From an uncultured Lachnospiraceae bacterium (lineage in GTDB: Bacteria > Bacillota > Clostridia > Lachnospirales > Lachnospiraceae), in the NCBI GenBank assembly GCA_964619785.1, contig CAZUGH010000002.1:11355-75354 (forward strand): a stretch of DNA of 64,000 bases, written 5' to 3'. The first letter of the stretch is position 1, and every line of letters starts with the position of its first letter. The notes under the pieces are model-generated. The model made no database searches and was not told the origin of the DNA. It was given only the letters and a program-made list of their open reading frames with translations. The translations under genes were made by a program, and so were the position numbers. Positions 9,712 to 54,233 of this stretch are shown in pieces.

Positions 9712-9778
9712 AATCTTGAAAAATAATATCTATTATGATAGTATAGATTAGATAAACGCTATTTGCATGGAGGGAAAA

Positions 9779-11128: not shown

Positions 11129-11143
11129 TTTTGGAGGTAGCAT

Positions 11144-12283: not shown

Positions 12284-12322
12284 TATAAGAAAAATAAAAT
12301 GGGAAAAACTCCAACCAAATGG

Positions 12323-12351
12323 TTTACATTGGCAAAAGTATATAGTATACT
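12323..12351 (+). promoter_or_regulatory. Putative sigma-A promoter of tig
   Basis: TTTACA, 17-nt spacer, TATACT, about 65 nt upstream of the tig ATG. Confidence 0.4.
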
Positions 12352-12417
12352 GTTAGTTTGGGGATACTTGCCCTTTTATATAGAAAACATAATAGTAGAA
12401 ATTTGGAGGAAAATTAA

Positions 12418-13731
12418 ATGAGTTACAAAGTTGAGAATCTTGAGAACAGTTTGGTGAAGTTGACAATCGAAGTTGGCGCAGATGAATTTGAGAAAGCAAT
12501 GGAGAAGTCATATCACAAGAATAAAGGTAAGATGGCAATTCAGGGATTCCGTAAAGGAAAAGCCCCACGTAAGATGCTTGAGAAGATGTATGGACCAGAA
12601 GTATTCTATGAGGATGCAGCGAATTTCATTATTCCTGAGGCATATGAAGAAGCAGCTAAGGATAGTAAGCTTGAGATTGTAGCTCGTCCTGACATTGATG
12701 TTACTGAGATTGGTAAGGACAAGCCTTTTGTGTTTACAGCTACCGTTGCGGTTAAACCAGAAGTTACACTTGGTGATTATAAGGGATTAGAAGTAACCAA
12801 GAAGGAAGTTAAGATTATGGCAGCTGATGTCAATGCTGAGATTGACAAGGTTCGCGAGCTGAATTCCAGAATGGTTACCGTAGAGCGTGCCATTAAGAAG
12901 AATGATATCGCAGTGATTGACTTTGAAGGTTTTGTAGATGGCGAACCATTCGAAGGCGGCAAAGCTGAGAATCATCAGTTAACAATTGGAAGTCATTCTT
13001 TCATCGATACATTCGAAGATCAGTTAGTTGGTAAGAAGACTGGTGAAGAAGTAGAAGTGAATGTAACATTCCCAGAAGAGTATCATGCTGAAGAGCTCAA
13101 AGGCAAACCAGCATTATTCAAAGTAACAATTAAAGAAGTTAAAGAAAAAGAGATGCCTAAGGCTGATGATGAGTTTGCTAGTGAAGTTTCTGAATTTGAA
13201 ACACTTAAAGAGTACAAAGCAAGCATCAAGAAGGATTTGACCGAGAAGGCTAAACAGGCTGCTAAGACGGAGAAGGAAAATGAAGTTGTAGAGAAGGCTG
13301 TTGCAAATGCGAAGATGGAGATTCCTGAACCAATGATTAACGAACAGATTAATCAGATGACACAGGAATTTGCAAGTAGACTTCAGCAGCAGGGTATCAA
13401 CTTTGAACAGTATATGCAGTTGACAGGTATGGATTCTGCTAAGTTCATCGAGCAGATGAAGCCAGAGGCAGTGAAGAGAATTCAGACAAGACTTACACTT
13501 GAAGCAATCGTTAAGGCTGAGAAGATCAAAGCAACTGCTAAGGACATTGAGAAAGAGATCGAAAATATGGCTTCTATGTACCAGATGGAAGTTGAGAAGA
13601 TTAAAGAGATTATCGGCGAAGATGAGAAAGAACAGATTGGTGCTGACATGGCAGTTCAGAAGGCTGTTGACTTCTTGATTAAGGAAGCAGTTGAAGTAGA
13701 AGCAAAAGAAGAGAAAAAAGACGAAGAGTAA
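12418..13731 (+). CDS. tig: Trigger factor
   Basis: Ribosome-binding motif QGFRKGKAP, central FKBP-type PPIase, immediately upstream of clpP-clpX. Confidence 0.92.
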   Translation: MSYKVENLENSLVKLTIEVGADEFEKAMEKSYHKNKGKMAIQGFRKGKAPRKMLEKMYGPEVFYEDAANFIIPEAYEEAAKDSKLEIVARPDIDVTEIGKDKPFVFTATVAVKPEVTLGDYKGLEVTKKEVKIMAADVNAEIDKVRELNSRMVTVERAIKKNDIAVIDFEGFVDGEPFEGGKAENHQLTIGSHSFIDTFEDQLVGKKTGEEVEVNVTFPEEYHAEELKGKPALFKVTIKEVKEKEMPKADDEFASEVSEFETLKEYKASIKKDLTEKAKQAAKTEKENEVVEKAVANAKMEIPEPMINEQINQMTQEFASRLQQQGINFEQYMQLTGMDSAKFIEQMKPEAVKRIQTRLTLEAIVKAEKIKATAKDIEKEIENMASMYQMEVEKIKEIIGEDEKEQIGADMAVQKAVDFLIKEAVEVEAKEEKKDEE

Positions 13732-38859: not shown

Positions 38860-39318
38860 ATGGTGAAGAGATTTAAGGTATTAGTCAAGGGAATTGTTCA
38901 ACATGAGAATCAGTTTCTAGTGGTCGAACGCTGGTATGATGATCGCATTTTTGACCCATATCAGTGGGAATTTGTTGATGGTGAATTAGAATTTGGAGAG
39001 GTGCCGGATAAGGCAGTTCTTCGAGTAATTCAAGAAAAGACCGGACTTACCGTAGCAATCGATGACATACTCTATACATGGGGATTCACCGCTGGAGAGA
39101 TTTGTACGTTAGGCATTGCATATCAATGCGTGTCGGCGACGGATGAAGTGACTCTAGCGGAGGATTACCGTGATTATAAATGGGTCACGCGTGATGAGAT
39201 GAGTGACTATATTACGAATAAAGCAGTGCTTGAAGATATTGACCGAGCAGGATTGACAAGAGATTTTGATCTCGAAGATTTTGGAAAGGTGGATATTTTT
39301 ATTGAACATTTGGATTAA
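38860..39318 (+). CDS. NUDIX-family hydrolase (Nudix box partly degenerate)
   Basis: The sequence is GELEFGEVPDKAVLRVIQEKTGL, against the consensus GX5EX7REUXEEXGU. Confidence 0.7.
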   Translation: MVKRFKVLVKGIVQHENQFLVVERWYDDRIFDPYQWEFVDGELEFGEVPDKAVLRVIQEKTGLTVAIDDILYTWGFTAGEICTLGIAYQCVSATDEVTLAEDYRDYKWVTRDEMSDYITNKAVLEDIDRAGLTRDFDLEDFGKVDIFIEHLD

Positions 39319-40606
39319 AAATGGACATTTACTGGACCCAGGAACCAACCGTGATGGTATGTTTGACATCTTTATTAAAGATGGCAAAGTAGCAGCTGTT
39401 GGTTCTTTTCCAAGTAAATACGTAAGTGAAGAAGAATTACAGGAAAGTCAGCAAGTAGATGCTACAGGCAAATATGTTATGCCAGGCTTCATTGATTTGC
39501 ATGTACATTATCGTGAACCAGGGTTTGAGTACAAGGAGACGATTGCCACAGGAACAAAAGCAGCAGTTCGTGGAGGGTTTACAGGGACATGCCCGATGCC
39601 AAATACTAAGCCTAGTACAGATTGTCCACAGATGATTGATAAGGTTCTTACGATTGCTAGTCGCGAAGGTCTCTGTAAAGTGTATCCAGTCGGTGCCGTA
39701 ACAATCGGTCAGATGGGTCAAGAGATGACGGATATTGAAGGTATGGTTCACGCGGGTGCCAAGGCAATTAGTGAGGATGGTAAGTCAGTTATGGATGCTG
39801 GTCTATATCGACGCGCGATGGAAGAAGCAGCTCGAATGGATATTCCGGTTATGGCTCACTGTGAGGATAAAAACCTTGTTGGAAAAGGTGCTCTAAACGC
39901 AGGAGATAAAGCACAGGAACTTGGTGTTGCAGGGATTACCAATGCGGTTGAAGATGTCATCGTTGCGCGTGATATTTTATTAGCAAAAGAGACTGGTGCT
40001 AGACTTCACCTTTGTCACTGCTCAACGAAAGATAGCGTTGAGATGATTCGTCTTGCCAAGGCAGAAGGTGTGTGTGTAAGCGGTGAAGTATGTCCACATC
40101 ATTTTGCTATGACAGAACAAGACATCCCTGGGGATGATGCCAACTATAAGATGAATCCACCACTGAGAAGCGCAGCGGATGTTCAGGCGTTGAAGGAAGG
40201 CCTACGCGATGGTGTGATGGATGTGATTTCAACGGACCATGCACCACACAGCGAGGAAGAAAAGCAAAGACCAATTGCGGAAGCGCCATTTGGTATTGTT
40301 GGTTTAGAGACTGCATTTTGTCTGACGGTGACACATCTTGTATTAGAGGGCTATTTGACACCGATGCAGATGGTTGAGAAGATGAGTACCAATCCAGCTA
40401 GAATTCTCGGTGTAGAAGGTGGAACTCTTCGAGAGGGGTCAGTAGCAGATTTGGTAATTGCGGACATGAATGAGAGATATCAGATTAATCCAAATGAGTT
40501 TGTTTCAAAGGGAAAAAACACACCATTTTCTGGACATGAAGCCGTAGGACGAGTTGAGAAGACGATGGTGAATGGACAGTTTGTCTATGAAATGGAGACA
40601 GTATAA
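39302..40606 (+). CDS. pyrC: Dihydroorotase
   Basis: DLHVHYREPG (HxH), AISEDG, HLCH, STDHAPH. TTG 39302 follows GGAAAGGTGGA. The listed ATG 39266 would overlap the NUDIX gene by 53 nt. Confidence 0.9.
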   Translation: MNIWIKNGHLLDPGTNRDGMFDIFIKDGKVAAVGSFPSKYVSEEELQESQQVDATGKYVMPGFIDLHVHYREPGFEYKETIATGTKAAVRGGFTGTCPMPNTKPSTDCPQMIDKVLTIASREGLCKVYPVGAVTIGQMGQEMTDIEGMVHAGAKAISEDGKSVMDAGLYRRAMEEAARMDIPVMAHCEDKNLVGKGALNAGDKAQELGVAGITNAVEDVIVARDILLAKETGARLHLCHCSTKDSVEMIRLAKAEGVCVSGEVCPHHFAMTEQDIPGDDANYKMNPPLRSAADVQALKEGLRDGVMDVISTDHAPHSEEEKQRPIAEAPFGIVGLETAFCLTVTHLVLEGYLTPMQMVEKMSTNPARILGVEGGTLREGSVADLVIADMNERYQINPNEFVSKGKNTPFSGHEAVGRVEKTMVNGQFVYEMETV

Positions 40607-42508: not shown

Positions 42509-43276
42509 ATGGCGAAAAAACAAATGATGGCGCATATCACAGCGATGACAAAAGTGACAACAGATATTTATAGTATGTGGCTCCGTGTCGAGGGTATCGC
42601 TTCTGAAGCAGTACCAGGACAGTTTATTTCCCTGTATTGCAACAATGAAGATCGATTGTTACCGAGACCAATTAGTATCTGTGAGATTAATCGTGAAGAA
42701 GAATTATTACGACTTGTTTTTCGAGTTGTTGGTAAGGGAACAGAGGAATTCTCACATTTACAACCAGGAGACACAATCAAGGTGCTAGGACCACTTGGCA
42801 ATGGTTTTCCATTGCAAGAGGGTAAGGCAATCCTGATTGGTGGCGGAATTGGAATTCCACCTATGTTACAGCTTGCTAAGGAATTGCCAGGCGACGTAAC
42901 CGTGGTGCTTGGCTATCGTGATGATGATTTGTTTTTAAAAGAGGATTTTGAACCTTATGCTAACGTTGTTATCTCTACTGAAGATGGCAGCGTTGGTACA
43001 AAGGGTAATGTTATTGATGCAATTCAAGAAGAAAAGCTCGAAGGATCCGTGGTCTACTCCTGTGGTCCAACACCAATGCTACGTGGTGTGAAGGCATATG
43101 GAGAGAAAAATGGCATACCGACTTATCTATCTATGGAAGAGAAGATGGCTTGTGGAATTGGGGCATGTCTTGCCTGTACTTGCCAGTCTACAGATGTAGA
43201 TGACCATTCTAAGGTCCATAATAAGAGAATCTGTAAAGATGGCCCAGTATTTTTATCTACGGAGGTGACACTATGA
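42509..43276 (+). CDS. pyrK: Dihydroorotate dehydrogenase B electron-transfer subunit
   Basis: RPISI FAD motif, GGGIGIPP, C-terminal 2Fe-2S Cys cluster CGIGACLACTC. Confidence 0.9.
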   Translation: MAKKQMMAHITAMTKVTTDIYSMWLRVEGIASEAVPGQFISLYCNNEDRLLPRPISICEINREEELLRLVFRVVGKGTEEFSHLQPGDTIKVLGPLGNGFPLQEGKAILIGGGIGIPPMLQLAKELPGDVTVVLGYRDDDLFLKEDFEPYANVVISTEDGSVGTKGNVIDAIQEEKLEGSVVYSCGPTPMLRGVKAYGEKNGIPTYLSMEEKMACGIGACLACTCQSTDVDDHSKVHNKRICKDGPVFLSTEVTL

Positions 43277-44181
43277 GTAAACTTTTGCAGACAGAATTTG
43301 CTGGTGTGAGTTTTGATAATCCGGTAACGACAGCTTCGGGCACATTTGGCTCAGGGCTTGAGTATGAAGATTTTGTTGATTTGACAAAATTAGGTGCTGT
43401 AACTACCAAGGGTGTTGCAAATGTACCATGGCCAGGTAATAAAACGCCACGAATTGCAGAGACACACAGTGGAATGCTCAATGCGATTGGATTGCAAAAC
43501 CCAGGTATTGATACCTTTATTCACCGTGATTTGGCTTACTTGAATCAGATTGGTGCCAGAGTGATTGTGAATGTGTGTGGTCATTCTACGGAGGAGTACC
43601 TTGAGGTGGTAGAACGGCTGGCAGAAGAGAAAGTGGATTTACTTGAAATCAATATCTCATGCCCGAATGTAAAAGAAGGCGGCATTGCCTTTGGACAAAA
43701 GCCAGAGATGGCAGAGGAGATTACGAAAGCTGTGAAAAAGGTTGCGAAGCAGCCAATCATTATGAAGCTCAGTCCGAATGTGACAGATATTACCGAGATG
43801 GCCAAAGCAGTTGAAGCTGGTGGTGCAGATGCGGTATCGTTAATTAACACATTGACCGGTATGAAGATTGATGTGAAACGACGTGCTTTTGCGATTGCTA
43901 ACCAAACAGGTGGTATGAGTGGACCTTGCGTGAGACCAGTTGCAATACGAATGGTTTATCAGGTCGCACAGGCTGTACAGATTCCAATCCTTGGTATGGG
44001 TGGCATTGAGAATACAGAAGATGCATTGGAATTTATGATGGCAGGTGCATCGATGGTTGCCGTAGGAACAGCCAATTTCTTTAATCCGATGGCAACAAGT
44101 GAGATTATCGATGGCTTAGAAGAGTATGCAAAACAAGAGAAACTTACTAATATACATGACATTGTTGGTTGTGTGAGATAA
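43273..44181 (+). CDS. pyrD: Dihydroorotate dehydrogenase B catalytic subunit (class 1B)
   Basis: NISCPNV active-site Cys, GLQNPG, GGMSG, GGI. 4-nt overlap with pyrK. Confidence 0.93.
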   Translation: MSKLLQTEFAGVSFDNPVTTASGTFGSGLEYEDFVDLTKLGAVTTKGVANVPWPGNKTPRIAETHSGMLNAIGLQNPGIDTFIHRDLAYLNQIGARVIVNVCGHSTEEYLEVVERLAEEKVDLLEINISCPNVKEGGIAFGQKPEMAEEITKAVKKVAKQPIIMKLSPNVTDITEMAKAVEAGGADAVSLINTLTGMKIDVKRRAFAIANQTGGMSGPCVRPVAIRMVYQVAQAVQIPILGMGGIENTEDALEFMMAGASMVAVGTANFFNPMATSEIIDGLEEYAKQEKLTNIHDIVGCVR

Positions 44182-44202
44182 GAAAACAGGGGGAATGAAT
44201 TT

Positions 44203-44877
44203 ATGGAGAGTTATAAGCAGGAATTTATCGAGTTTATGGTAGATTCAAAAGTTTTGAAGTTTGGTGATTTTACATTAAAGAGTGGTAGAAAATCTCCATT
44301 TTTTATGAATGCTGGTTTATATGTGACAGGTGCACAGCTTCGTAAGCTAGGTGCATATTATGCCAAAGCAATCTATAACAAATACGGTGATGATTTTGAT
44401 GTGTTATTTGGACCTGCCTATAAAGGTATTCCGCTGAGTGTCGCAACAACAATGGCATTTGATGAATTATATGGTAAGGAAATTCGTTACTGTTCGAATC
44501 GTAAAGAGGTAAAAGATCATGGTGATACCGGTATTTTATTAGGTAGTCCAATCTATGATGGCGATAAGGTTGTTGTAATCGAGGATGTAACTACTTCCGG
44601 CAAGTCAATGGAAGAGACGATTCCTATTGTGCGTGCCCAGGCAGATGTTGAGATTGTTGGCTTGATGGTTTCTTTAAATCGTATGGAACGAGGCAAAGGT
44701 AATCAAGGCGCGCTAGATGAAATTAAGGATCTTTATGGATTCGAGACCAATGCGATTGTAAGTATGGCTGAGGTAGTTGAGCATCTTTATAACAAGCCTT
44801 ATAAAGGACAGGTTATTATTGATGATGAGCTAAAGAATCGCATTGATGCTTATTATAATGAGTATGGTGTGAAATAA
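44203..44877 (+). CDS. pyrE: Orotate phosphoribosyltransferase
   Basis: PRPP motif VVVIEDVTTSGKS, GPAYKGIPL. Confidence 0.93.
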   Translation: MESYKQEFIEFMVDSKVLKFGDFTLKSGRKSPFFMNAGLYVTGAQLRKLGAYYAKAIYNKYGDDFDVLFGPAYKGIPLSVATTMAFDELYGKEIRYCSNRKEVKDHGDTGILLGSPIYDGDKVVVIEDVTTSGKSMEETIPIVRAQADVEIVGLMVSLNRMERGKGNQGALDEIKDLYGFETNAIVSMAEVVEHLYNKPYKGQVIIDDELKNRIDAYYNEYGVK

Positions 44878-44991
44878 AATACATTTATTTACAGAGGTGA
44901 ATGGAGGGTTTCTAGGCATCTCTGTTTTTTTGCGTCAAAATTTCGTAAGATGTGACAAAATCAGACATGTGGTTTTGTAAATGTTTGCTAA

Positions 44992-45020
44992 TTTACACCG
45001 GGTAAAAAGGGTGTTAAGAT
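44992..45020 (+). promoter_or_regulatory. Putative promoter of the Tad-like cluster
   Basis: TTTACA, 17-nt spacer, TAAGAT with an extended TG, about 30 nt upstream of ATG 45051. Confidence 0.3.
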
Positions 45021-45050
45021 AGAGCCATTCCACTTGAAAGGAGGGGCTGT

Positions 45051-45836
45051 ATGAAGATAGCCTTTTGGAGTAATTCAAGAGGAAGGAATGGGGTTACTAG
45101 CAATTTGGTGTGTATTAGTGTTTTGCTTGGTCTGCTTAAGCAGCAGAGGGCAGTATTACTTGAGAATCATTGTCATATGAATAATTTGGCTAGTGCATTT
45201 TCGGCACAATTAGAAGCTAGAGAACTATTATGTGAAACAAGTCCACTGATTGGAAAGGATGAGTGGAATCATATTCTACAAGTGGTTGGTCGAGGCTCTC
45301 TCGGACAGTCTACCATTTCTTTACTTGAAAACAATCTATTATATATCCCAGGGACTAGGAGCCTTCAGGAAGAGACCATATCAGAATGGATGCAGAAGCG
45401 GTTAGTATCCGTATTGTCTTTGATGGAGGAGTATGTAGAGAAGATATATATTGATACGGCATCAAGTCACTATGAGAGTTCTCAGATTATCTTACAAGAA
45501 GCAGATTGTGTTGTTGTGAACTTGTCTCAGAACCCACTCGTATTACAACATTTCTTTCGCAATTTTTCACAGGTTCAGAAGAAAGCATTTTATCTAATCG
45601 GCAATTACAGTGCTGATTCTATTTTCACAAAAGAACATATATGCCATAAGTATGGTATTTCAAAAAATCAACTTGGGGTTATCCCCTATCATGTACCATT
45701 CTCAGACTCGCTGGCAGAGGGCCGGCTGATTTCTTTCCTACAGGACAACTTGTATTGTAGGGAAACCAATGTAAATTATAACTTTATTCAGGAGGTTGTC
45801 GAGACTGCACAGAAGTTTCAATGTAGCTTAAATTAA
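45051..45836 (+). CDS. ParA/MinD-fold protein with degenerate P-loop (TadZ/CpaE-like, no receiver domain)
   Basis: MinD-like order of elements: KIAFWSN-SRGRNGVTS (in place of KGGVGKTT), VLLEN, IYIDTAS, ADCVVVNLSQNP, YLIGNY, LGVIPY..S..EG. The Walker A Lys is absent. Confidence 0.5.
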   Translation: MKIAFWSNSRGRNGVTSNLVCISVLLGLLKQQRAVLLENHCHMNNLASAFSAQLEARELLCETSPLIGKDEWNHILQVVGRGSLGQSTISLLENNLLYIPGTRSLQEETISEWMQKRLVSVLSLMEEYVEKIYIDTASSHYESSQIILQEADCVVVNLSQNPLVLQHFFRNFSQVQKKAFYLIGNYSADSIFTKEHICHKYGISKNQLGVIPYHVPFSDSLAEGRLISFLQDNLYCRETNVNYNFIQEVVETAQKFQCSLN

Positions 45837-45849
45837 TAGGGAGGTAGCT

Positions 45850-48798
45850 ATGAGAAGAATTCATATAGCTTTTATTTTCGCACTCTTTTTTATTATGCTG
45901 CTGCCCGGGAATCTTGCTAAAGCAGTAGATGTAAATAGTTACTCTTCGTTGAAAAAGGAGTTAGAGAAGAGTGGGAGTGCAACGGTAAATGTTACGGAGA
46001 AGATATTAATTAAGGGTGTTATTCATGTTAGGGGTACGAAGACTCTCAATGGCATGAACAATAATCTAAATCGTGATGCCACAACGGGAAAGCAGTATTA
46101 TGGTGTGTTGTTTCAGGTTGGTAAAGCGGGCGCCTACACAGGTCATCTGACAGTTAAGAATGCTGTAATTAGTGGGAATGGACAAGCAGCTTCCATGTCA
46201 GCTGGGGTTGATGGAAGATTGATTCGGGTTGTAGAGCCAGGTTCTTCCTTGGTGTTGACGGATGGTGCTGTTCTTAAGAATAATTTTAATTCGGATCGAA
46301 TAATGGATGGCGGTGGTGGAGTCACGGTACTGAATGGATGCACTGCCGAGATGAGAGGCAGTAGTCAGATTATTTCGAATCGTTCTAAGACAGGTGGTGC
46401 GGCCATTCGTGTCGAAGCCGGAGGTTCGTTTACACTGACAAACGGGTTGATTCAAGGAAACCAAGTGAATCAGTATCAGCTTGATGATATATATGGTGGG
46501 CTTGGAGGTGCCATTCACAATTTTGGTTATGTTGAGATTAAGAAAGGTGAGATTCTTGGGAATGTCGCTAACGGAGATGGTGTCAATGGTGGTCTCGGTG
46601 GTGGAATCTATAATCAAGGTGAACTTGTGATTGCGTCAGGTACGATACAAGGGAATCTGGCATCTTTAGGTGGCGGAGCTATTTATTCAAGTGGAAGTAG
46701 AAGCCTTACGCAAATAAAAGAAGGAAGTATTGTGAAAAATACTTGTGGAGATTGCGGTGGTGGCTTATTTATTAATAATGGTGGACGATTGCTTTTTGAA
46801 GGTGGTGAGATAGGTGGCAACCAGGCAGGAACGGGTGGCGGTGTGTATCTCAGTAAACAAGAGACACGAATGGAGATGAAAGGTGGATGGATTCATGGCA
46901 ATGTAGCAAGTAAGTCAACGAATCTAACAGGTGGTGGCCTTCGTGTCAATGGTGCTACAGCAGAGATTAGTGGTGGTGTGTTTGGAATCAATCGCCAGAA
47001 TAGAAAAAGCGATAATTTATGCCCGAACACAGGAAAACCGAATTATTCAAGTCTGATATATAATAGTGGCATTGTTCGTGCAACTGGTGGCAATCTATAT
47101 AGTAGTGCAGTTGGAGCAAGGGCAATTGTTAATATGGGTGAGATGGAACTAAAATTTAAACGAAATTGTGGTATTCATGGAGAGGGTGAGGTAGCAGTTC
47201 TTAATTATGCAACACTCATGTATGGGTCTATATCAGGTTCAGCACCATTAATTGATGGAAGTTTCAAAATTGGAGTCGAGAATAATCAGCAAATGGTCAT
47301 GAGACAAGGAAATATAAGCGCGAGCATAGATGGAATTAAGAATCATGGTGATCTTGAGATATATGGTGGCGCTTCTCATGGAAGACGCGGTGTCAACGCA
47401 TTGGCTGGTAGTTTGGTACTAGGTGGAAAAGTGACGATTCCATCGATTTATCTTGCGAGTGGTCAGATTGTCCACGTTGCAGGAGGAGTAGATATTAACG
47501 GGGGTTTACTTTGCCCAGACGATTATTATGAGGGTAGAGTACTTGTTCGTTCGGATATCGAAGACGCTGATTTCAACATGAAGCAGTTTCGGTTAGAACC
47601 TAAGAATCCTTATCGCATGCAAAGTGCAGGTAAAAAACTATATATTACGGTTATTCGATATATTGTGGAATTTGATAGTAATGGTGGAAAGGGCTACACA
47701 GATTCGATTGTTTCGATAGCAGGAATGCCAATTACGATGCCAAAGTGTGGATTTACTCGAAATGGCTGTGTATTCCTTGGATGGTCAAAGGTGAGGTTTT
47801 CGAAACCGGTCTTGAGTGAGAAACCAGATTATAAGGAAAAAGAGATTGTACCATCATTAGCAGATGAGAAGACAGTCATAACATTGTATGCTGTATGGGG
47901 GTCTGTTCCTACATTTAAACCAGTATATTCGGATGTGGAATTCTATCAGGGTGAATATGTTGATGAGAAGATTTTAAAGAGTCTTGTAACGGTTTATGAT
48001 GAGCTAGATGGAGATATCAGTCAAAGTGTACGAATTGAAAAGATTATATATCGAGGGGCGATTGCGTATTATCCGATTCATCTTGACACAGCAGCAAAAT
48101 ACATTGGCACAATTCAGATTCATTATAAATGTAAGAATCAAAGTGGAAGAAATACAGACTACTATTTATCGGTAAGATTGAAAGAGAATCAACCGCCTAG
48201 TATAAAAGGAAAAGATCGTTATTACTTTTTGGATGAACTAAAAGAGATGACGATTGATGAGGTGGTAGACGAACTAACTACAACTGTAGAATTTCGGGAT
48301 GACGTAGAATCTAAAGATGAATTAATGAAAGATTATTATATCAATAAGATTGATATTCCGATTGATCGAACAGGAAATCATACAGTATATATTAACGTGC
48401 GAGACCAATATGGACATCGTTTCTATATGAAACCAAATGAAAAGAAGAGGTATGGCTCAGGGAAAACAAGTGATTGTCTCTTTTTATTCCATATCATTGC
48501 TAATACACAAAATCATGATGAGTTCGCTGGGTATGTACGATTTATATCTAGTGCTCATATAGATACGCTTAGTCAATCTTCCAAATGGAGAGGTACTCAA
48601 TTAAGCCAACGAATCAAAACGTATTTTGAGAGAGAAACAGTGGGTGGTAATTGTGCTTCGATTTGGTGTTTTGATAAAACACAGATTGATGCAGTACAAG
48701 CGTTGAATGAAAGTGGTGAGGATCTGTTTGGAGAAGAGGCTAATCTGAATTTTCTCCAACGGTTTCACCCAATAATTCGAAAGGAGGATGAAGAATGA
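45850..48798 (+). CDS. Secreted 982-aa beta-helix / Listeria-Bacteroides repeat / Ig-like multidomain protein (candidate adhesin)
   Basis: Signal peptide ...PGNLAKA-VD. Eight tandem Gly-rich turns (GGxGGAI/GGGIY ... G.I.GN.A). VEFDSNGG...GFTRNGCVFLGWS...TLYAVW repeat. Two D..DGDIS-type Ig-like modules. No LPXTG motif and no C-terminal TM. Confidence 0.7.
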   Translation: MRRIHIAFIFALFFIMLLPGNLAKAVDVNSYSSLKKELEKSGSATVNVTEKILIKGVIHVRGTKTLNGMNNNLNRDATTGKQYYGVLFQVGKAGAYTGHLTVKNAVISGNGQAASMSAGVDGRLIRVVEPGSSLVLTDGAVLKNNFNSDRIMDGGGGVTVLNGCTAEMRGSSQIISNRSKTGGAAIRVEAGGSFTLTNGLIQGNQVNQYQLDDIYGGLGGAIHNFGYVEIKKGEILGNVANGDGVNGGLGGGIYNQGELVIASGTIQGNLASLGGGAIYSSGSRSLTQIKEGSIVKNTCGDCGGGLFINNGGRLLFEGGEIGGNQAGTGGGVYLSKQETRMEMKGGWIHGNVASKSTNLTGGGLRVNGATAEISGGVFGINRQNRKSDNLCPNTGKPNYSSLIYNSGIVRATGGNLYSSAVGARAIVNMGEMELKFKRNCGIHGEGEVAVLNYATLMYGSISGSAPLIDGSFKIGVENNQQMVMRQGNISASIDGIKNHGDLEIYGGASHGRRGVNALAGSLVLGGKVTIPSIYLASGQIVHVAGGVDINGGLLCPDDYYEGRVLVRSDIEDADFNMKQFRLEPKNPYRMQSAGKKLYITVIRYIVEFDSNGGKGYTDSIVSIAGMPITMPKCGFTRNGCVFLGWSKVRFSKPVLSEKPDYKEKEIVPSLADEKTVITLYAVWGSVPTFKPVYSDVEFYQGEYVDEKILKSLVTVYDELDGDISQSVRIEKIIYRGAIAYYPIHLDTAAKYIGTIQIHYKCKNQSGRNTDYYLSVRLKENQPPSIKGKDRYYFLDELKEMTIDEVVDELTTTVEFRDDVESKDELMKDYYINKIDIPIDRTGNHTVYINVRDQYGHRFYMKPNEKKRYGSGKTSDCLFLFHIIANTQNHDEFAGYVRFISSAHIDTLSQSSKWRGTQLSQRIKTYFERETVGGNCASIWCFDKTQIDAVQALNESGEDLFGEEANLNFLQRFHPIIRKEDEE

Positions 48799-48977
48799 CA
48801 GAGTTTCTTCAAGAGTATGGCAAGATTATTGTTGCTGTTCTGGTTATCTTAGCTTTGGTTGCGATTGTTGTATTATTCCGTACACCGATGTCTAATATGT
48901 TTGCCAATCTATTCAACAATTTCTTTTCTTCAGTAGGTTCAAGTGCTGGTTTGCCTGCACCAACCTTTAATCCATAA
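48795..48977 (+). CDS. Flp-like (type IVb/Tad) pilin candidate, leaderless; probable major subunit
   Basis: 60 aa starting MTEFLQEYGKIIVAVLVILALVAIVVLF. AAGGAGGA RBS. The ATG overlaps the upstream stop (ATGA). In-frame TGA 2 codons upstream. Confidence 0.55.
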   Translation: MTEFLQEYGKIIVAVLVILALVAIVVLFRTPMSNMFANLFNNFFSSVGSSAGLPAPTFNP

Positions 48978-48988
48978 GGAATTATTTT

Positions 48989-49016
48989 GCCGGGTGGATT
49001 TACCCATCCGGCCTTT
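48989..49016 (+). terminator. Hairpin after the pilin gene (possible partial terminator/attenuator)
   Basis: GCCGGGTGG-ATTTAC-CCATCCGGC (one G-U) followed by CTTT. Confidence 0.35.
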
Positions 49017-49061
49017 GAAAAAGAATACACAAGTGTGATATACACCTTAGATGGAGGACAT

Positions 49062-50126
49062 ATGAGTGATTTTCATAAAAAGTATTTATTAAATCGGGAA
49101 GATTACGGTTTGCTATATAACTATGTAGTAGATGATAATGTGACAGATATTAATTGGAATGGGAGGCAGCTGTGGATTGATGACTTGAGTAAAGGCAGAT
49201 ATCTGGCACCTGAAGTATTAGAGCCTGTATTTGTTGAGCGGTTATCTACTTTGATTTCGAATGTAGTTAGTGTCCCATATAATCGCATGAGTCCAGTTCT
49301 TGAAGCAGAGACAGAAGAGTTGAGAATTAGTATTGTGCATGGAAGTGTGGCACATTCTGGTGCAACGATTTCATTGCGTAAGATTCCTGCTGTTCGACGA
49401 ATGACGAGTGAGGATATGATTCACTCTGGATATTGCGATAAAGAGGTTCGAAACTTCCTAGTGAATTGCATTCGTGCACACTTTAATATTGCGATATGTG
49501 GCATGCCAGGTGCTGGCAAGACGGAACTTCTCAAGTTCTTGACACAATATATACCGGATACAGAACGAGTGATTACCATTGAAGACACACTAGAAATACA
49601 TTATCAGAAGATTAATCCTAACAAGGATTGTGTAGAGATGAAGGTCGCGGAGCAATTCACCTACACAGATGCAATTAAGGCGTGTCTGCGACAGCTTCCC
49701 AAGTGGATTATTCTATCAGAAGCACGCTCAACAGAGGTACGATATTTATTGGAGTGCTTTAGCACAGGTACATATGGAATGACGACGTTGCATACGGATG
49801 ATGTTCGGAATATCCCGGATCGGATAAAGAACATGGCTGGTGGTGAGATGGATGCCACACGTATTGTGAATGATACATATCGTTTTATTAATGTGGGGAT
49901 TTTAGTGAAAAGTATTGTTGAAAAGGATGGAAGAATTACAAGAAGGATTGAACAGATTGGTGTGTTTGACCGCTTCGGAGCAGATTTGATGCATGTGGTG
50001 AACCAGGTAAAGATGATTGTAGATAATGGAACCATTGTTGGTCGAGATATTGACCATAACATAGAGAGACGATTTCATGAGATGGGGATAGATAATCCGT
50101 TTGTGAGGGAGGGATTTGTTGGATAA
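49062..50126 (+). CDS. CpaF/TadA/VirB11-family type IV filament secretion ATPase
   Basis: Walker A CGMPGAGKTELL, Asp box RVITIEDTLEI, Walker B-like WIILSEARSTE, His box GMTTLHTDD. ATG 49062 is 4 nt after GGAGGA. Confidence 0.85.
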   Translation: MSDFHKKYLLNREDYGLLYNYVVDDNVTDINWNGRQLWIDDLSKGRYLAPEVLEPVFVERLSTLISNVVSVPYNRMSPVLEAETEELRISIVHGSVAHSGATISLRKIPAVRRMTSEDMIHSGYCDKEVRNFLVNCIRAHFNIAICGMPGAGKTELLKFLTQYIPDTERVITIEDTLEIHYQKINPNKDCVEMKVAEQFTYTDAIKACLRQLPKWIILSEARSTEVRYLLECFSTGTYGMTTLHTDDVRNIPDRIKNMAGGEMDATRIVNDTYRFINVGILVKSIVEKDGRITRRIEQIGVFDRFGADLMHVVNQVKMIVDNGTIVGRDIDHNIERRFHEMGIDNPFVREGFVG

Positions 50127-51435
50127 TCAATGGAGAGGTCGAATAATACGCTTTGGCATTACCGTTATTGGTGTATTGTTGGTGATGATGATTTATGAAT
50201 TGTGGTGGTGGTGTGGTCTGGGATTGGGGGTTATAGCTCTTTTTGCTGTACCACGAATGAATTATTATCGTAGAAAATCACGCGAGGAAGAGCAAGTATA
50301 TCACCAGGTGACAACATATATGGAACAACTTCTGTGTTCATATAAGAGAACAGGACAGATATTGCCTTCCTTACAGGATTGTGTGAGTATTTTTCAAGAT
50401 GATGATATGAAACAGACGATACTTAAGACAATACATGTTATGAGGACTGGAGAAGGTGTTGAGGATGGAGATATTACCAAGTCTGCTTTTGAGATTATGG
50501 AGAGAGCATATCCGAGTCGGCGTATGAAGATGATTCATAGCTTTATTTGTCAGGCAGAAGCCACTGGTGGTGAGCGAGAAGATGCATTAGATATTTTGTT
50601 AGAGGAGATTCAGCTTTGGAGACAAAGGACACAACTTTATCAGAAGAAAAAGTCATTTATTCGTATTGATACTATGATTGCCGTGGGACTCTCTGCATTG
50701 ATGTGTTATATCTCAAAGCTTTTGACGCCATCCGAATTGGGTATTCGATTACCTGAAACAATGTTATATCAGATTGCTACATCAGTTGTTTTAGGGGCAT
50801 TTGTAGGCACCATTGTATTGGTGTGGAAGAAGCTTACGGGAAGCTGGTTAGATTCAGATGAGATGGTAACGGAGAAACAAGAGCAGAGTATGGATAAGCA
50901 GTATGATATCTTGAAAGGGCATATTGAGACAAAGTCTAGAATTAAGCACAACTTGGCATTGAGAATTTGTCGACGTGAGGTTGAGAAAATATATCCTTAC
51001 TGGCTTTTATCCGTTACATTACAGATGCAGACAGAGAGTGTTTATTCGGCAATTGAAAAATCCTGTCATTCCATAGCAGGAATTTTTAAACGGGAAGTAG
51101 GAGTGTTATTAGAGGAGATATATCAGGAGCCATCTGCTTTACAACCGTACCTAAATTTTTTTCAGGAGTTATCCATACCAGAGGTACAGACAGGAATGAA
51201 AATACTTTACTCTGTTTGTCAAAACGGTTATGAGGATTCGAGAAGACAGTTGGACTTTTTGATTTCAAACAATAACCAGTGCATGGATCGTAGTCAATCT
51301 CATCATTATGAAAACCAAGTGGCGGGCCTATCAATGCTGAAGCATATGCCAATGATGATTGCATGCGTCAAGTTGTTAGCTGATTTGGTGAATTTGCTAG
51401 CACTTACCATGGGAATGTTTCAACAGATTGTTTGA
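50116..51435 (+). CDS. Polytopic membrane protein, candidate fused TadB/TadC (GspF-like) platform
   Basis: 11-nt overlap with the ATPase gene. Topology is 2 TM, then about 130 aa soluble, 2 TM, about 170 aa soluble, and a C-terminal TM. No sequence motif recognised; call rests on position and architecture. Confidence 0.45.
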   Translation: MLDNQWRGRIIRFGITVIGVLLVMMIYELWWWCGLGLGVIALFAVPRMNYYRRKSREEEQVYHQVTTYMEQLLCSYKRTGQILPSLQDCVSIFQDDDMKQTILKTIHVMRTGEGVEDGDITKSAFEIMERAYPSRRMKMIHSFICQAEATGGEREDALDILLEEIQLWRQRTQLYQKKKSFIRIDTMIAVGLSALMCYISKLLTPSELGIRLPETMLYQIATSVVLGAFVGTIVLVWKKLTGSWLDSDEMVTEKQEQSMDKQYDILKGHIETKSRIKHNLALRICRREVEKIYPYWLLSVTLQMQTESVYSAIEKSCHSIAGIFKREVGVLLEEIYQEPSALQPYLNFFQELSIPEVQTGMKILYSVCQNGYEDSRRQLDFLISNNNQCMDRSQSHHYENQVAGLSMLKHMPMMIACVKLLADLVNLLALTMGMFQQIV

Positions 51436-51463
51436 GCAACAAAATGCTCGGAAATGAGGGAGT

Positions 51464-51574
51464 ATGGAAGAATTTATAGAAGAATATGGTGAAATGTTAA
51501 TTATGACATTGATGGGCTCTGGAATGTTAGCCATTTTTATGGGACTAGCAAAGATGATTGGAGAAATGTTTTGA
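51464..51574 (+). CDS. 36-aa Flp-like mini-pilin candidate (not in the ORF track)
   Basis: Sequence MEEFIEEYGEMLIMTLMGSGMLAIFMGLAKMIGEMF. GAGGGAG RBS. In-frame TGA 3 codons upstream. Confidence 0.5.
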   Translation: MEEFIEEYGEMLIMTLMGSGMLAIFMGLAKMIGEMF

Positions 51575-51589
51575 CAGGGAGGATAGATT

Positions 51590-51739
51590 GTGAGTGAATG
51601 GATTGCAGAGTATGGACGTTTGATTATCATGGCGTTAATTGGAATTTTAATTATGTCGGTCATTATATTTATGTGGCAATATCTGGGATTTTTCATGAAT
51701 GCTTTGGGTGATTCACTGATGGGAGGGAATGCTTTGTGA
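51590..51739 (+). CDS. 49-aa Flp-like pilin candidate (not in the ORF track)
   Basis: GTG start 6 nt after AGGGAGGA. Sequence (M)SEWIAEYGRLIIMALIGILIMSVIIFMWQYLGFFMNALGDSLMGGNAL. The stop overlaps the next start (GTGA). Confidence 0.5.
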   Translation: MSEWIAEYGRLIIMALIGILIMSVIIFMWQYLGFFMNALGDSLMGGNAL

Positions 51740-52188
51740 GTACGTTGATTCGACAATATGGACTTGTTATGATGGCAGTACTGATTGGGATTTTTCTTAT
51801 TTGTGGCGTATATCAAACGTTTCAAAATGAATGGGAGAAGACAGGTGTGATTGCAGATGGTAAACAAATGGAATTCGAGGGAAGGGCATCAACTGGCGGA
51901 GGGTATCCGATACTTAAAACACAAGATTGTCAAGTAAAGGTTGGTGACGTATTGGATGTGAGAGATTTAGCTCATGCCGCTGATGTAGATGGAAAAGATT
52001 TGAGCAAAGAGATTACCTATAAAGAGATTTCAGGTAATCTTCTTGGTAAAGATGGTAAGTCTTACTTGATTGATACGACAAAAGAGGGTGTATCGTGGCT
52101 TCAATTTCAAGTAAAAGGAAAGAGTGGTCTAGTTACTTGTAAGGAAGCTATCGTTATCGTGGATTGGAGGAAGAGTAAACAACTATGA
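51736..52188 (+). CDS. Pilin-like N-terminus fused to an Ig-like domain (candidate minor pilin)
   Basis: (M)STLIRQYGLVMMAVLIGIFLICG N-terminus. The C-terminal part has VGDVLDVRDL..AADVDGKDLSKEITY, resembling the modules in the 982-aa protein. Confidence 0.5.
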   Translation: MSTLIRQYGLVMMAVLIGIFLICGVYQTFQNEWEKTGVIADGKQMEFEGRASTGGGYPILKTQDCQVKVGDVLDVRDLAHAADVDGKDLSKEITYKEISGNLLGKDGKSYLIDTTKEGVSWLQFQVKGKSGLVTCKEAIVIVDWRKSKQL

Positions 52189-52511
52189 GAATGATGATTG
52201 AGCATTTTATTACTTTTTTTCTACTGTTAGTATTTGTTTGGATTGGTGTTATGTATGTCATGCAAAACCTGTCCTATTCTAGTGCAAGACAATACCATAG
52301 TGGAGTTGTTAATCAAATTGAGGATAGCAATTTTTCAGAAGATATCATCGCGGAATGCAAGGATAAGGCAGAAAAGGTTGGATATGATTTAAATATTGAA
52401 CGATATTACAATGGGACTAATCAGGATGCTATGGTGACACTTTCTTTTATTTATGAGATTCCCATACTTCATACACAAAAGACTTATTCAATACAAGGCT
52501 ATGCTAGATAG
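52185..52511 (+). CDS. Pseudopilin-like small protein
   Basis: MRMMIEHFITFFLLLVFVWIGVMYV N-terminus is a degenerate version of the shared motif. ATGA overlap with the upstream gene. Confidence 0.4.
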   Translation: MRMMIEHFITFFLLLVFVWIGVMYVMQNLSYSSARQYHSGVVNQIEDSNFSEDIIAECKDKAEKVGYDLNIERYYNGTNQDAMVTLSFIYEIPILHTQKTYSIQGYAR

Positions 52512-52526
52512 GAATGGAGGAAGTTT

Positions 52527-52907
52527 ATGAAAAGTATAATGATATCATTTATTTGTGTACTTTGCTTACTCTTTACCGTTCAAGCACATTCCGATATAAC
52601 GAGCTACTCGGTTCGAAAGGGAGAACTACAGGATGCACTAGGAGTTGCGATGAGTCAGACAATGAGAGAGTGTATGGTTCAGGGAAGTTATGGCATTGTA
52701 GATGAGAAAACTTTTACAGCAGCATTTTTACGAAGTTTATTGAGTAAAGTGAATTCAGATGGGGAAATAACAGTGAAGATTGTGACGTTAGATATGGAAG
52801 AAGGATTTTTAGATGTGGAAGTGATTCAGAAATATCAAGATTATATCGGTAAAGAGCGAGAACTCAAACTGAGAAGAACTGTGATATTAGAAGAACCGAC
52901 CCTATAA
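52527..52907 (+). CDS. N-terminally anchored or secreted small protein, last gene of the cluster
   Basis: GGAGGA RBS. Hydrophobic N-terminus MKSIMISFICVLCLLFTVQAHS. Preferred over the overlapping ORF 52514-52705. Confidence 0.4.
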   Translation: MKSIMISFICVLCLLFTVQAHSDITSYSVRKGELQDALGVAMSQTMRECMVQGSYGIVDEKTFTAAFLRSLLSKVNSDGEITVKIVTLDMEEGFLDVEVIQKYQDYIGKERELKLRRTVILEEPTL

Positions 52908-52917
52908 GAGTCGGTTC
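52893..52917. terminator. Hairpin between convergent genes
   Basis: GAACCGAC-CCTATAAGA-GTCGGTTC. It overlaps the + gene stop. No clear T-run. Confidence 0.3.
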
Positions 52918-52922
52918 TAGTA

Positions 52923-54233
52923 TTAGTCTTCTTGAGAATCAGATGATTCTGTCAATGGTGGGTTCACATGAATCTGAATTTTGTCAATTCGGTTATTGTG
53001 TACCTCGAGAACAGTATAGATTGCATATTCGTCCTCTGTTCTCTCGCCGGCTTCTGGGAAGTGGGCAAGTAGATTGATGACATGACCAGCAATGGAATCA
53101 TAGTCATCAGATGTAATCGGTAGATGAAGATTTTCTTCGATATCATCTAGGCTAGTAGAGCCCAGAACGATATATTCATTATCTGCGATGATTTGAATAT
53201 CATCTTCTTCATCCTCATCATATTCGTCTCGGATATCGCCTACGATTTCTTCAAGTAAGTCTTCCATAGTAATGAGACCTGCCAAGGCACCATACTCATC
53301 CAAAACAATTGTCATTGAGATGAATTCTTTACGCATCTCGATGAAAAGTTCAGAAGTGTTTTTGTATTCATAAGTAAAATGTGCTTCTCGCACCAAACTC
53401 ATTAAATCAAAGCTCTCACGGTCGCCTTGATAGAATACAAAGTCTTTTAGATTTATTATACCTACGATATTGTCAATACTTTCGTAATAAACAGGCATTC
53501 GTGCAAATTTGTTATCTGTAAACTGTGCCAATAGTTCTTCATATGAAATATCCGTACTCACCATCTCGATGTCCATACGAGGGATCATAACATCTTTAGC
53601 AAGTGAATCGCCAAAATCAACAATATTGGTAATCATCTGACGTTCTTCACTTTCGATGACACCTTCTTCGTGGCTAACATCTACAAAGGTTCTAAGCTCG
53701 TCCTCGGTGATGGTGGCCTTCTCAGACATATCAACGCGTAGCAGACGAAGTATCAGATTGGATAATCCACTTACTAACCATACAATAGGTGTTAATATCT
53801 TTGTTATAAACAAGATCACGCTTGCATACATGAGCGACATTTTTTCGGCATTCATAGTGGCAAATGATTTTGGCGTAATTTCACCAAAAATCAAAATCAG
53901 GAATGTGAGGATTCCAGTAGCAATTCCAGCACCTAGACTGGCATTCTGACTGAGTCCCATACGTTCACAGATGGAAAATGCATAGGCTGTAGAAATTGAA
54001 GAAGCGGATAAGTTCACTACGTTATTACAAATCAATATAGTGCTTAACATCTTATGAGGTTCTTCAATAAGCTTTAATACAGTAGCAGCACGTTTCACTT
54101 TCTCTTCATCTAGGGCTCTCATACGTAATTTATTTACTGTAGTAAGAGCTGTTTCAGCAGAAGAGAAAAAGGCGGATAAGGTAATTAAAACAATAATTAC
54201 AATAATATTCACCGCATCACTCGGGTCCAACAA
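52923..54233 (-). CDS. CNNM/HlyC/CorC-family transporter (DUF21-CBS-CorC_HlyC)
   Basis: Four N-terminal TMs with GEITPK, a CBS pair, and a C-terminal CorC_HlyC region. Confidence 0.9.
   Translation of the reverse strand: MLDPSDAVNIIVIIVLITLSAFFSSAETALTTVNKLRMRALDEEKVKRAATVLKLIEEPHKMLSTILICNNVVNLSASSISTAYAFSICERMGLSQNASLGAGIATGILTFLILIFGEITPKSFATMNAEKMSLMYASVILFITKILTPIVWLVSGLSNLILRLLRVDMSEKATITEDELRTFVDVSHEEGVIESEERQMITNIVDFGDSLAKDVMIPRMDIEMVSTDISYEELLAQFTDNKFARMPVYYESIDNIVGIINLKDFVFYQGDRESFDLMSLVREAHFTYEYKNTSELFIEMRKEFISMTIVLDEYGALAGLITMEDLLEEIVGDIRDEYDEDEEDDIQIIADNEYIVLGSTSLDDIEENLHLPITSDDYDSIAGHVINLLAHFPEAGERTEDEYAIYTVLEVHNNRIDKIQIHVNPPLTESSDSQED

Follow-up and report, generated by a model that had tools for sequence, protein, structure and literature searches.

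In this study, we analyzed a gene cluster in a 64,000-nucleotide stretch of DNA (the window) from an uncultured Lachnospiraceae bacterium (assembly GCA_964619785.1, contig CAZUGH010000002.1). The cluster comprises ten co-directional genes on the + strand at positions 45051-52907, designated g01 to g10, which lie between the terminator of pyrE and a convergent CNNM gene (Table 1). Among them are genes for a traffic ATPase, a polytopic platform protein, a protein with a ParA/MinD fold, several tiny pilin-like proteins, and a large surface protein. On the basis of the evidence presented below, the locus probably encodes a minimal type IV filament (TFF) machine, which is related to Tad/Flp pili and forms a deep branch not classified before. 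An earlier inspection of the window, made without database searches (the sequence-only reading), had counted eleven genes. We find ten; a 63-aa open reading frame (ORF) at 52514-52705, which overlaps g10 in another frame, is left out of the count.

Table 1. Features of the locus and its upstream boundary, with positions given in window coordinates.
Feature	Position	Strand	Details
Terminator of upstream pyr operon (pyrE)	44891..44932	+	Hairpin ACAGAGGUG...CAUCUCUGU then U7; marks 5' locus boundary
Putative promoter-like site	44992..45020	+	TTTACA-17 nt-TAAGAT with TG; consensus match only
g01, ParA/MinD-fold protein in TadZ/CpaE position	45051..45836	+	261 aa
g02, beta-helix/InlB-repeat surface protein, presumed adhesin	45850..48798	+	982 aa
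g03, class A mini-pilin-like protein	48795..48977	+	60 aa
g04, secretion/traffic ATPase, CpaF/VirB11/FlaI superfamily	49062..50126	+	354 aa
g05, single-chain two-module polytopic platform (PilC/GspF/TadB+TadC-like)	50116..51435	+	439 aa
g06, class B mini-protein	51464..51574	+	36 aa
g07, class C mini-pilin-like protein	51590..51739	+	49 aa
g08, pilin-like protein	51736..52188	+	150 aa
g09, candidate minor subunit, N-terminal hydrophobic helix	52185..52511	+	108 aa
g10, N-terminally membrane-anchored protein	52527..52907	+	126 aa

Tightly coupled, the ten genes make up a single unit that has a promoter-like site of its own. As the pyr genes end in a clean intrinsic terminator, the operon boundary is fixed on the upstream side, where the sequence-only reading had also placed it; the hairpin at 44891-44925 precedes a U-run and has a minimum free energy of -20.9 kcal/mol (z -3.06 versus shuffles). 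A strong Shine-Dalgarno sequence (GGAGG, 45040-45046) is situated ahead of g01. The tight packing described earlier is seen in overlaps at 48795 (ATGA), 50116 (11 nt), 51736 (GTGA), and 52185 (ATGA). Gene callers place the start of g05 at 50119 (438 aa). At the other end, 15 nt separate the stop of g10 from that of the CNNM gene (52923-54233, - strand). Nucleotide composition shows no anomaly, with a GC content of 0.36-0.445 across the locus and of 0.37-0.44 across its flanks.

To determine the distribution of the locus, the g04 ATPase was used to scan one genome per species, which identified 38 related Lachnospiraceae loci (L001-L038). The whole gene order is repeated in L001-L035, representing ~35 species, and where the contig reaches these loci mostly share their flanks, namely pyrD/pyrE upstream and CNNM and ABC-F genes downstream. 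Since gene order and protein sequences are kept across 35 or more loci, the genes are real rather than chance ORFs. Identity across the Lachnospiraceae loci is 63-75% for the ATPase, compared to just 25-55% for the remaining proteins. Where the contigs cover it, the core of L001-L035 consists of g01, g02, g04, g05, a 29-41-aa g06-like protein, g08, g09, and g10. The genes g03 and g07 are confined to the subclade of the window, with g03-like proteins also encoded in the distant loci L036-L038. In two of these (L036, L037), the large surface protein is placed at the operon end and no ParA-like gene was found among the ORFs checked. Because gene order and flanks recur in ~35 species, the locus is a vertically inherited chromosomal operon. 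Its GC content matches that of the flanks and therefore gives no compositional sign of recent transfer; a horizontally acquired island was also considered, and is rejected on account of this match together with the conserved synteny.

The ATPase is central to the interpretation of the locus. All four motifs noted by the sequence-only reading (GMPGAGKT, ITIEDTLE, IILSEARSTE, TTLHTD) are present in the g04 translation, which matches Pfam T2SSE (1.2e-25). Its best match among PDB sequences is CpaF (8rkd, 1.7e-20), with archaeal GspE, FlaI, and VirB11 scoring similarly (77 bits for CpaF, 73 for afGspE, 68 for FlaI). The protein has no CpaF N-terminal extension (354 aa versus 450-500 aa) and scores far under the cut-offs of all NCBIfam equivalogs. 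The top scorer among these is the VirB11 model TIGR02788 (110.9 bits, cut-off 249.95), which covers residues 124-277 only; the TadA-family model TIGR03819 scores 106.5 bits (cut-off 373) and the ComGA model NF041000 52.8 bits (cut-off 300). More than 1900 homologues of g04 were retrieved. In addition to T2SSE, the close homologues P0002, P0085, P0112, and P0119 carry a precomputed match to PF27713.

A neighbor-joining tree was constructed from 317 columns of 22 sequences (100 bootstraps), with few references and no archaeal ATPases. In this tree, the Lachnospiraceae ATPase family is monophyletic (100/100) and sister to the 'VirB11-like' ATPases of pLS20/pXO2 plasmids (73/100). It groups with canonical CpaF in 0/100 bootstraps and with proteobacterial VirB11/TrbB likewise in 0/100. 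When g04 was searched with tblastn against 72,556 plasmids, the best matches were the 'VirB11-like ATPase' of the pLS20 family (135 bits, 2e-32) and those of pXO2-like plasmids, whereas canonical Clostridial CpaF trails at 108 bits. Hence, the earlier assignment of the ATPase to the CpaF/TadA/VirB11 group holds for the superfamily, on the strength of the T2SSE match, but not for the CpaF/TadA clade, given the 0/100 bootstraps.

The second diagnostic component is the platform. The sequence-only reading proposed that one polytopic protein replaces TadB plus TadC, and on fold and profile evidence g05 is a likely PilC/T2SSF-type platform. While g05 itself has no Pfam match, T2SSF is matched below the cut-off by 5/29 orthologues (best 3.4e-4), and the homologue P0413 passes the Pfam threshold (25.4 versus 25.2 bits). 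An AlphaFold2 (AF2) model based on a 54-sequence alignment is all-helical (pLDDT 93.2) and predicts two cytoplasmic helical modules with membrane helices between them. Its top Foldseek match in the PDB is PilC in 3jc8 (prob 0.99, E 0.02, TM 0.28/0.36); the TM values are low because 3jc8, a type IVa pilus machine, is itself a model. In hhalign comparisons, the N-terminal half matched canonical Clostridial TadB (P 1.5e-4) and the C-terminal half matched p39 of the pLS20/pXO2 plasmids (P 1.8e-4). The N-terminal half also gave a weak, colinear alignment with plasmid p38, and no match to canonical TadC was found. The g05 profile yielded nothing useful among PDB sequences, and when it and the g01 profile were used in word-indexed homology searches, these same unannotated families were all that was retrieved. 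The g05 family contains 864 representatives at E<=1e-3 and 399 clusters of 50% identity at E<=1e-30, and its top 150 members are all single-chain. Some homologues reach 670-890 aa (P0338, P0342, P0357, P0421, P0443). Most of these long forms have 250-340 extra N-terminal residues without a Pfam match, while P0421 has ~360 extra C-terminal residues, and they may be fusions with another system component.

In the first position of the operon, g01 was predicted to be a ParA/MinD-fold protein with a ruined P-loop and no receiver domain, and all three points are borne out. The AF2 model (pLDDT 83.6) matches ParA 3ea0 best in a Foldseek search of the PDB (E 3.8e-10, TM 0.70/0.76). Further fold matches include BcsQ, MinD, FlhG, FleN, and Soj, among 203 PDB matches at E<=1e-3. 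As the fold match spans the whole 261-aa chain, there is no receiver-like N-domain. The P-loop is degenerate (WSNSRGRNGVTS); in the orthologues it reads AFWSNxRG[KR][SN]xVTSNLA, where G11 alone is invariant and the Lys is not conserved. At the sequence level, g01 itself has no Pfam match and 10/28 orthologues weakly match CbiA/BcsQ/AAA_31. An hhalign comparison with canonical Clostridial TadZ gave P=0.015 over 148 colinear columns. A search of all PDB chains with the g01 profile retrieved none of ParA/MinD type and no TadZ at E<=10, and against E. coli MinD the profile aligned in the P-loop region alone, without significance; the fold search superseded this comparison.

The candidate subunits are very small. 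Four proteins (g03, g06, g07, g08) and 51 further small ORFs of the related loci share the N-terminus M-x-[ED]-[FLW]-[IL]-x-[EQ]-[YF]-G, behind which comes a hydrophobic helix. The sequences begin MTEFLQEYG in g03, MEEFIEEYG in g06, MSEWIAEYG...MGG in g07, and MSTLIRQYG in g08. Of the five Flp-like N-termini reported in the sequence-only reading, these four are clear, but that of g09 is a degenerate variant (M-x-x-x-I-E-H-F). The gene for g03 is directly upstream of the ATPase gene, and its product comprises the motif, a hydrophobic helix, and an amphipathic tail; it is the candidate major subunit. It is matched by Pfam Flp1_like (E 1.1e-4) and Flp_Fap (E 0.087), both under the curated cut-offs. 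Orthologues with 59-78% identity occur in 12 loci, and class A homologues are also present in L036-L038. Class B, represented by g06, consists of the motif and a single hydrophobic helix and is the sole small-protein class found in essentially every locus. The N_methyl family does not match the small proteins, which have no N-methylation-type prepilin motif (KGFTLxE).

These N-termini differ from those of known prepilins. The in-frame stop upstream of the 55 motif ORFs lies at a median distance of 10 codons, and at 1-2 codons for g03, g06, and g07 (1 codon for g03 and g07, the latter starting with GTG) and 8 for g08. Most of these ORFs have no alternative upstream start, and a GGAGG-like site is located ahead of most, including g03. 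With the start codons this well defined, a conventional basic class III leader is impossible. The Flp processing site G/XXXXEY was not found in the small proteins, given that E-Y-G occupies residues 7-9, the +1 equivalent has just two residues ahead of it, and residue 2 is not Gly. To compare registers, the Pfam profiles were calibrated on Caulobacter PilA (Flp_Fap G(-1) = position 7, E5-Y6-G7 = 12-14). In the HMMER alignment of the class A protein from L036, E7-Y8-G9 fall on the mature E5-Y6-G7 positions of Flp_Fap (E 0.004), which supports a leaderless reading. In contrast, residues 12-46 of g03 align with positions 11-46 of Flp1_like, which puts G9 at G(-1), in agreement with MAFFT; this supports a 9-residue leader, the sequence FLQEYG recalling the classical FLKDESG. 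The two profiles thus give conflicting registers, and the alternative with G9 as G-1 implies an acidic 9-residue leader and no Glu5. We consider the leaderless and short-leader readings about equally likely, and each is atypical.

The short-leader reading extends to a broader alternative, in which the proteins are ordinary prepilins, cleaved behind Gly-9 by a TadV- or PilD-type peptidase from another genomic site, and the locus specifies a sequence-diverged canonical Tad pilus with ordinary maturation. We rate this as a serious contender with somewhat less than an even chance. The start of g03 (M-T-E-F-L-Q-E-Y-G) resembles the classical Flp leader end R-F-L-K-D-E-S-G, its G9 is put at G(-1) by both Flp1_like and MAFFT, and Gly-9 is invariant in class A, class C, and most g08 orthologues. 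Furthermore, peptidases are often shared between systems (PMC6668835). However, residue 9 of class B is often I, T, A, S, or M, whereas the preceding [EQ]-[YF] is invariant; the putative leader is acidic, with no basic residue in the proteins of the window; the mature protein would have no Glu5; and the L036 register favors mature E5-Y6-G7. Finally, an A24 prepilin peptidase was found neither in the operon, nor in the 35 orthologous loci with their 8-kb flanks, nor in L036-L038, nor among the ten largest other ORFs of the window. It is present in the canonical Clostridial Tad locus, as opposed to 0/38 here. Cleavage after residue 9 is disfavored by the variable class B residue, the acidic leader, and this lack of a peptidase in 38 loci. 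Maturation is therefore envisaged as either peptidase-independent or dependent on cleavage of a 9-residue acidic leader by an enzyme encoded elsewhere. In line with the sequence-only reading, which saw none of them in this cluster, prepilin peptidase, TadE, and secretin were not found in any locus, and CpaB was not found either.

Three further proteins carry small domains behind N-terminal anchors. The product of g08 combines the shared motif and hydrophobic helix with a C-terminal domain of ~110 aa; no Pfam or PDB relative of the protein was found. In g09, a small alpha/beta domain ends in an invariant GYAR (26-sequence alignment, 30-54% identity). The protein g10 is the 126-aa anchored protein anticipated by the sequence-only reading; its N-terminal membrane anchor is followed by a conserved helix-plus-strand domain (AAFLQ...VRR; 24-sequence alignment). 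Profiles of g09 and g10 gave no family match and nothing useful among PDB chains. None of the three matches TadE (PF07811) at E<=1, and hhalign comparisons with canonical Clostridial TadE were not significant. Likewise, comparisons of g08, g09, and g10 with pLS20 p36 (DUF5411), with p40 (DUF4320), and with one another returned nothing.

The operon also includes the secreted beta-helix protein g02, whose nature was correctly foreseen: it has a signal peptide, and beta-helix families are matched across its orthologues. The N-terminus, MRRIHIAFIFALFFIMLLPGNLAKA/VDV, is a classical Sec signal peptide; the protein carries neither an LPXTG motif, nor a lipobox, nor an anchor at its C-terminus. A Gly/Asn-rich right-handed beta-helix at the N-terminus is followed by InlB/Listeria-Bacteroides repeats and a conserved C-terminal domain spanning about residues 790-982. 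Pfam matches among the orthologues are Pectate_lyase_5 ('adhesive domain'; 12/27), Flg_new (9/27), and Beta_helix (4/27). The length varies between species from 459 to 1017 aa, with conserved blocks at both termini. A short form (459-674 aa) tends to occur without g03, and loci with g03 have a long form (854-1017 aa).

Taken together, a traffic ATPase, a T2SSF-type platform, a ParA-like partner, and tiny Flp-like subunits are best explained as a type IV filament machine. On the basis of the families involved, we propose that the g04 hexamer docks on the cytoplasmic helical domains of g05, a single two-module polypeptide that would stand for the TadB/TadC heterodimer. In this scheme, g01 would serve as a TadZ-like scaffold or localization factor rather than as a working ATPase. 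The small proteins g03, g06, and g07 would reside in the membrane and be lifted by the platform into a thin filament or short pseudopilus, while g08-g10 would act as N-terminally anchored minor, priming, or tip subunits with small globular domains. In the most speculative step, the filament would hold the anchorless Sec-exported g02 at the surface as an adhesin; g02 could attach to it in the way that PilY1 docks on minor pilins.

The proposed machine has much in common with canonical Tad/Flp systems, such as Caulobacter Cpa, Aggregatibacter Tad, and the locus on the Alkaliphilus plasmid pB6464 (L044). The shared features are an ATPase of the same superfamily, a T2SSF-type platform, a ParA/MinD-fold accessory protein in first position (TadZ/CpaE-like), and very small pilin-like subunits with E-Y-G ahead of a hydrophobic helix. 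The Tad systems of other monoderms also do without a secretin. Nevertheless, g04 falls outside the CpaF clade, the platform is fused rather than split into tadB and tadC, g01 has no receiver-like N-domain, the subunits have no G/XXXXEY leader, and TadV, CpaB/RcpC, and TadE/F/G were not detected in the locus. In L044, a canonical Clostridial system, Flp, A24 peptidase, and TadE are encoded side by side. For these reasons, the comparison supports a machine that works like Tad, but does not establish membership of the Tad family proper. The sequence-only reading of a Tad/Flp-like filament therefore survives as a minimal, divergent monoderm TFF operon that has neither peptidase nor secretin, but not as a canonical Tad system.

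Two other systems are informative. Tad systems have been catalogued in Clostridia (PMC6668835), and for the uncultured gut Clostridia clade TANB77 a published Tad-like locus combines a TadC-TadB fusion as platform with numerous small pilin-like proteins of one transmembrane helix (TMH) (PMC11680825). Compared by description only, the TANB77 locus resembles ours in its TadZ/CpaE-like proteins, TadA-like ATPase, single fused platform, large protein (at the end), and run of one-TMH pilin-like proteins, which are recognizable only by structure. Unlike our locus, it encodes CpaB and has two genes of the ParA-like type; its ATPase (640 aa) contains a transmembrane helix, its platform is a 693-aa protein with 8 TMHs, and its pilin-like proteins are larger (143-237 aa versus 36-60 aa here). 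Archaeal type IV pili and archaella (FlaI, afGspE; FlaJ/TadC-like) have ATPases nearly as similar to g04 as CpaF is, as well as a one-gene platform. However, the class III signal peptides of their subunits are removed by PibD, FlaK, or EppA, and none of their accessory genes are present in this locus.

The closest parallel is found on Bacillus plasmids, as indicated by the sister relationship of the ATPases. In the pLS20/pXO2 (pAW63-type) module, the order of genes 34-42 of pLS20 (TIE adhesin, p36, p37 ATPase, p38, p39, p40, p41/42) parallels that of the locus. Its surface protein is large and has a signal peptide (TIE in pLS20; 1415 aa in a pXO2-like plasmid). The module further comprises small transmembrane proteins, the ATPase, a pair of polytopic proteins (~250-280 aa), a 120-aa protein with an N-terminal anchor, and single-helix proteins of 47-50 aa. 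The anchorless signal-peptide surface protein and the run of tiny single-helix proteins are thus common to both, and a peptidase gene is present in neither. The plasmid module, however, belongs to a type IV secretion system (T4SS) operon that includes VirD4, VirB4, VirB6, and others, while our locus is chromosomal and flanked by housekeeping genes. In addition, the plasmid platform is encoded by two genes (268 + 243 aa) rather than one 439-aa chain, and the plasmids lack a ParA-like gene. The adhesins show no relationship, being of thioester/CnaB type on the plasmids and of beta-helix/InlB-repeat type in our locus; the plasmid small proteins do not have the EYG motif, and plasmid p36 (DUF5411) and p40 (DUF4320) have no detectable relation to g08-g10.

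In the published annotation of pLS20, p37 is described as a putative T4SS VirB11, while p36 and p38-41 have no assigned role (PMC8557374). TIE was shown to carry neither a sorting signal nor a lipobox nor a wall-binding module, and its mode of attachment was explicitly left open (PMC8092201). The pairing of a machine with an anchorless, Sec-exported, adhesin-like giant, both here and on the plasmids, suggests that the filament presents this protein. By analogy, the same logic probably applies to the homologous pLS20/pXO2 module (TIE, p36, p37, p38-p42). In three sequences, namely L042 (pBatNRS213, pLS20 family; 5528-12446), L052 (3387-10447), and L043 (pXO2-like; 3319-12539), what looks like an unrecognized Tad-like module was observed, consisting of an anchorless adhesin, DUF5411, a CpaF/VirB11-family ATPase, two polytopic proteins, DUF4320, and duplicated single-helix proteins of 47-50 aa.

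Several points weigh against the filament interpretation. The filament is predicted here from genes, and every functional statement above is drawn from them. The ATPase tree includes few references and no archaeal ATPases, and the plasmid relationship has 73% support. For the platform, the modeled structure has low global TM values to the PilC model (0.28/0.36), and an hhalign comparison of the N- and C-terminal halves of g05 shows no internal sequence repeat. Class B proteins (29-41 aa) are too short and hydrophobic for the exposed subunit of a long pilus, and g03, the candidate major pilin, is missing in ~2/3 of the orthologous loci; as a result, a long pilus is not guaranteed. The acidic N-termini, with K/R after the helix, could favor an N-out topology opposite to that of pilins. 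It is their architecture that leads us to call g08-g10 pilin-like, and no relation to TadE/F, pLS20 p36/p40, or any PDB chain was detected for them. The surface protein g02 is tied to the filament by gene position, and comparisons with TIE of pLS20 and the large surface protein of pXO2 revealed no similarity.

An alternative use of the same components is a short pseudopilus, which would act as a type II secretion-like piston to push or release g02, and perhaps other substrates, through the thick cell wall. This is consistent with g02 being always co-encoded and having a Sec signal peptide with no anchor. It also accommodates the many loci that keep just a ~34-aa protein together with g08-g10, resembling a minor pseudopilin set, as well as the absence of a retraction ATPase or second motor. 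Overall, we regard it as unlikely. No Tad-like system of a monoderm is known to work as a secretion piston. The domains of g02 are annotated as adhesive (Pectate_lyase_5, InlB repeats), which is a better fit to a surface-retained adhesin than to a released enzyme, and next to the homologous plasmid module lies the gene of an adhesin active on the surface of donor cells (PMC8092201).

The plasmid kinship raises the question of whether the locus is part or a remnant of a conjugative T4SS, with g04 a VirB11-type ATPase for DNA transfer. The best annotated relatives of g04 are 'VirB11-like' ATPases in pLS20/pXO2-type conjugation operons, the top NCBIfam model is VirB11, and g03 faintly matches conjugation-system membrane proteins. 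Nonetheless, the VirB11 model reaches only 111 bits against a cut-off of 250 and covers the P-loop core only, and g04 never groups with proteobacterial VirB11/TrbB (0/100). A T2SSF-type platform is a hallmark of type IV filament systems and is not known from T4SS. The sequence-only reading had named two signs of conjugation, a conjugative ATPase clade and VirB4/VirD4/relaxase genes nearby. The first is seen in the sister relationship with the plasmid 'VirB11-like' ATPases (73/100), but the second is not: VirB4, VirD4, VirB6, relaxase, and cell-wall hydrolase genes were found neither in the 64-kb window nor in the conserved flanks. Every neighbor identified is a housekeeping gene, and the ten largest other ORFs of the window encode an AcrB-type pump, Lon, HtpG, Rho, trigger factor, citrate synthase, TrkH, GlmM, dihydroorotase, and an amylase. 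In addition, the chromosomal position is the same in ~35 species and the GC content is like that of the flanks. A conjugative role for the chromosomal locus is therefore very unlikely. A prophage or defense system was considered as well, and the neighbors identified, being housekeeping genes, give no sign of one.

We give equally little credence to a DNA-uptake (competence) pseudopilus similar to ComG or to the Flp-dependent transformation pili of Micrococcus: although the order of ATPase, platform, and five small N-terminally hydrophobic proteins resembles comGA-GG and Flp-type pili are reported to drive transformation (PMC4322843), the ComGA model reaches no more than 53 bits (cut-off 300), neither the locus nor its flanks contain ComEA, ComEC, or ComFA, the KGFTLxE-type prepilin motif is missing, and an adhesin-like giant protein is embedded in the operon.

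Returning to the filament machine, two aspects are new: the kinship of its ATPase with the plasmid 'VirB11-like' module and pilin N-termini without a basic leader. Our literature search found no paper describing the locus, leaderless Flp pilins, or a pilus role for pLS20 genes 36-42. Hardly any work has addressed the surface organelles of Lachnospiraceae, dominant butyrate producers among the gut commensals. The operon is widespread in this family, yet it is annotated almost entirely as 'hypothetical', as the sequence-only reading had expected for most of the genes. With the pLS20/pXO2 kinship, B. subtilis becomes available as a genetically tractable test bed. The kinship is also relevant to two open questions of Gram-positive conjugation, namely the role of the 'extra' VirB11-like ATPase and the display of the anchorless TIE. 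As a tentative extension, the operon and the plasmid module might together constitute an unnamed Firmicutes TFF branch, with leaderless subunits of ~30-60 aa, peptidase-free assembly, and an adhesin-holding role. If so, the attachment of TIE in pLS20 would be explained and the 'VirB11' of Gram-positive conjugative plasmids would be a pilus motor. Subunits that mature without a prepilin peptidase would, moreover, be an exception to a rule assumed for all type IV filaments.

Some additional observations concern the surroundings of the locus and related plasmids. Upstream, 42509-44877 is occupied by pyr genes (a pyrK-like electron-transfer subunit, pyrD, pyrE), and the dihydroorotase gene is found at 39266-40606. 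No terminator-like hairpin was found in the gap between g10 and CNNM (52907-52923), where transcripts may overlap. The distant Faecalimonas locus L036 has another left flank (5848-6507), with a Gp49-like (HigB-type toxin) gene and a small partner ORF; as this flank differs, the genomic position of the module is not fixed outside the clade of the window. On a pXO1-like Bacillus paranthracis plasmid (L045), the region 4968-11953 is annotated with CpaB, an AAA ATPase, a CpaF/VirB11-family protein, and two hypothetical proteins. This region also contains three tandem, nearly identical 67-aa genes, whose products have a long leader (…NEDSQLSSENG/MLIALAV) and no Glu5. The 181-aa polytopic protein encoded next could be a candidate peptidase.

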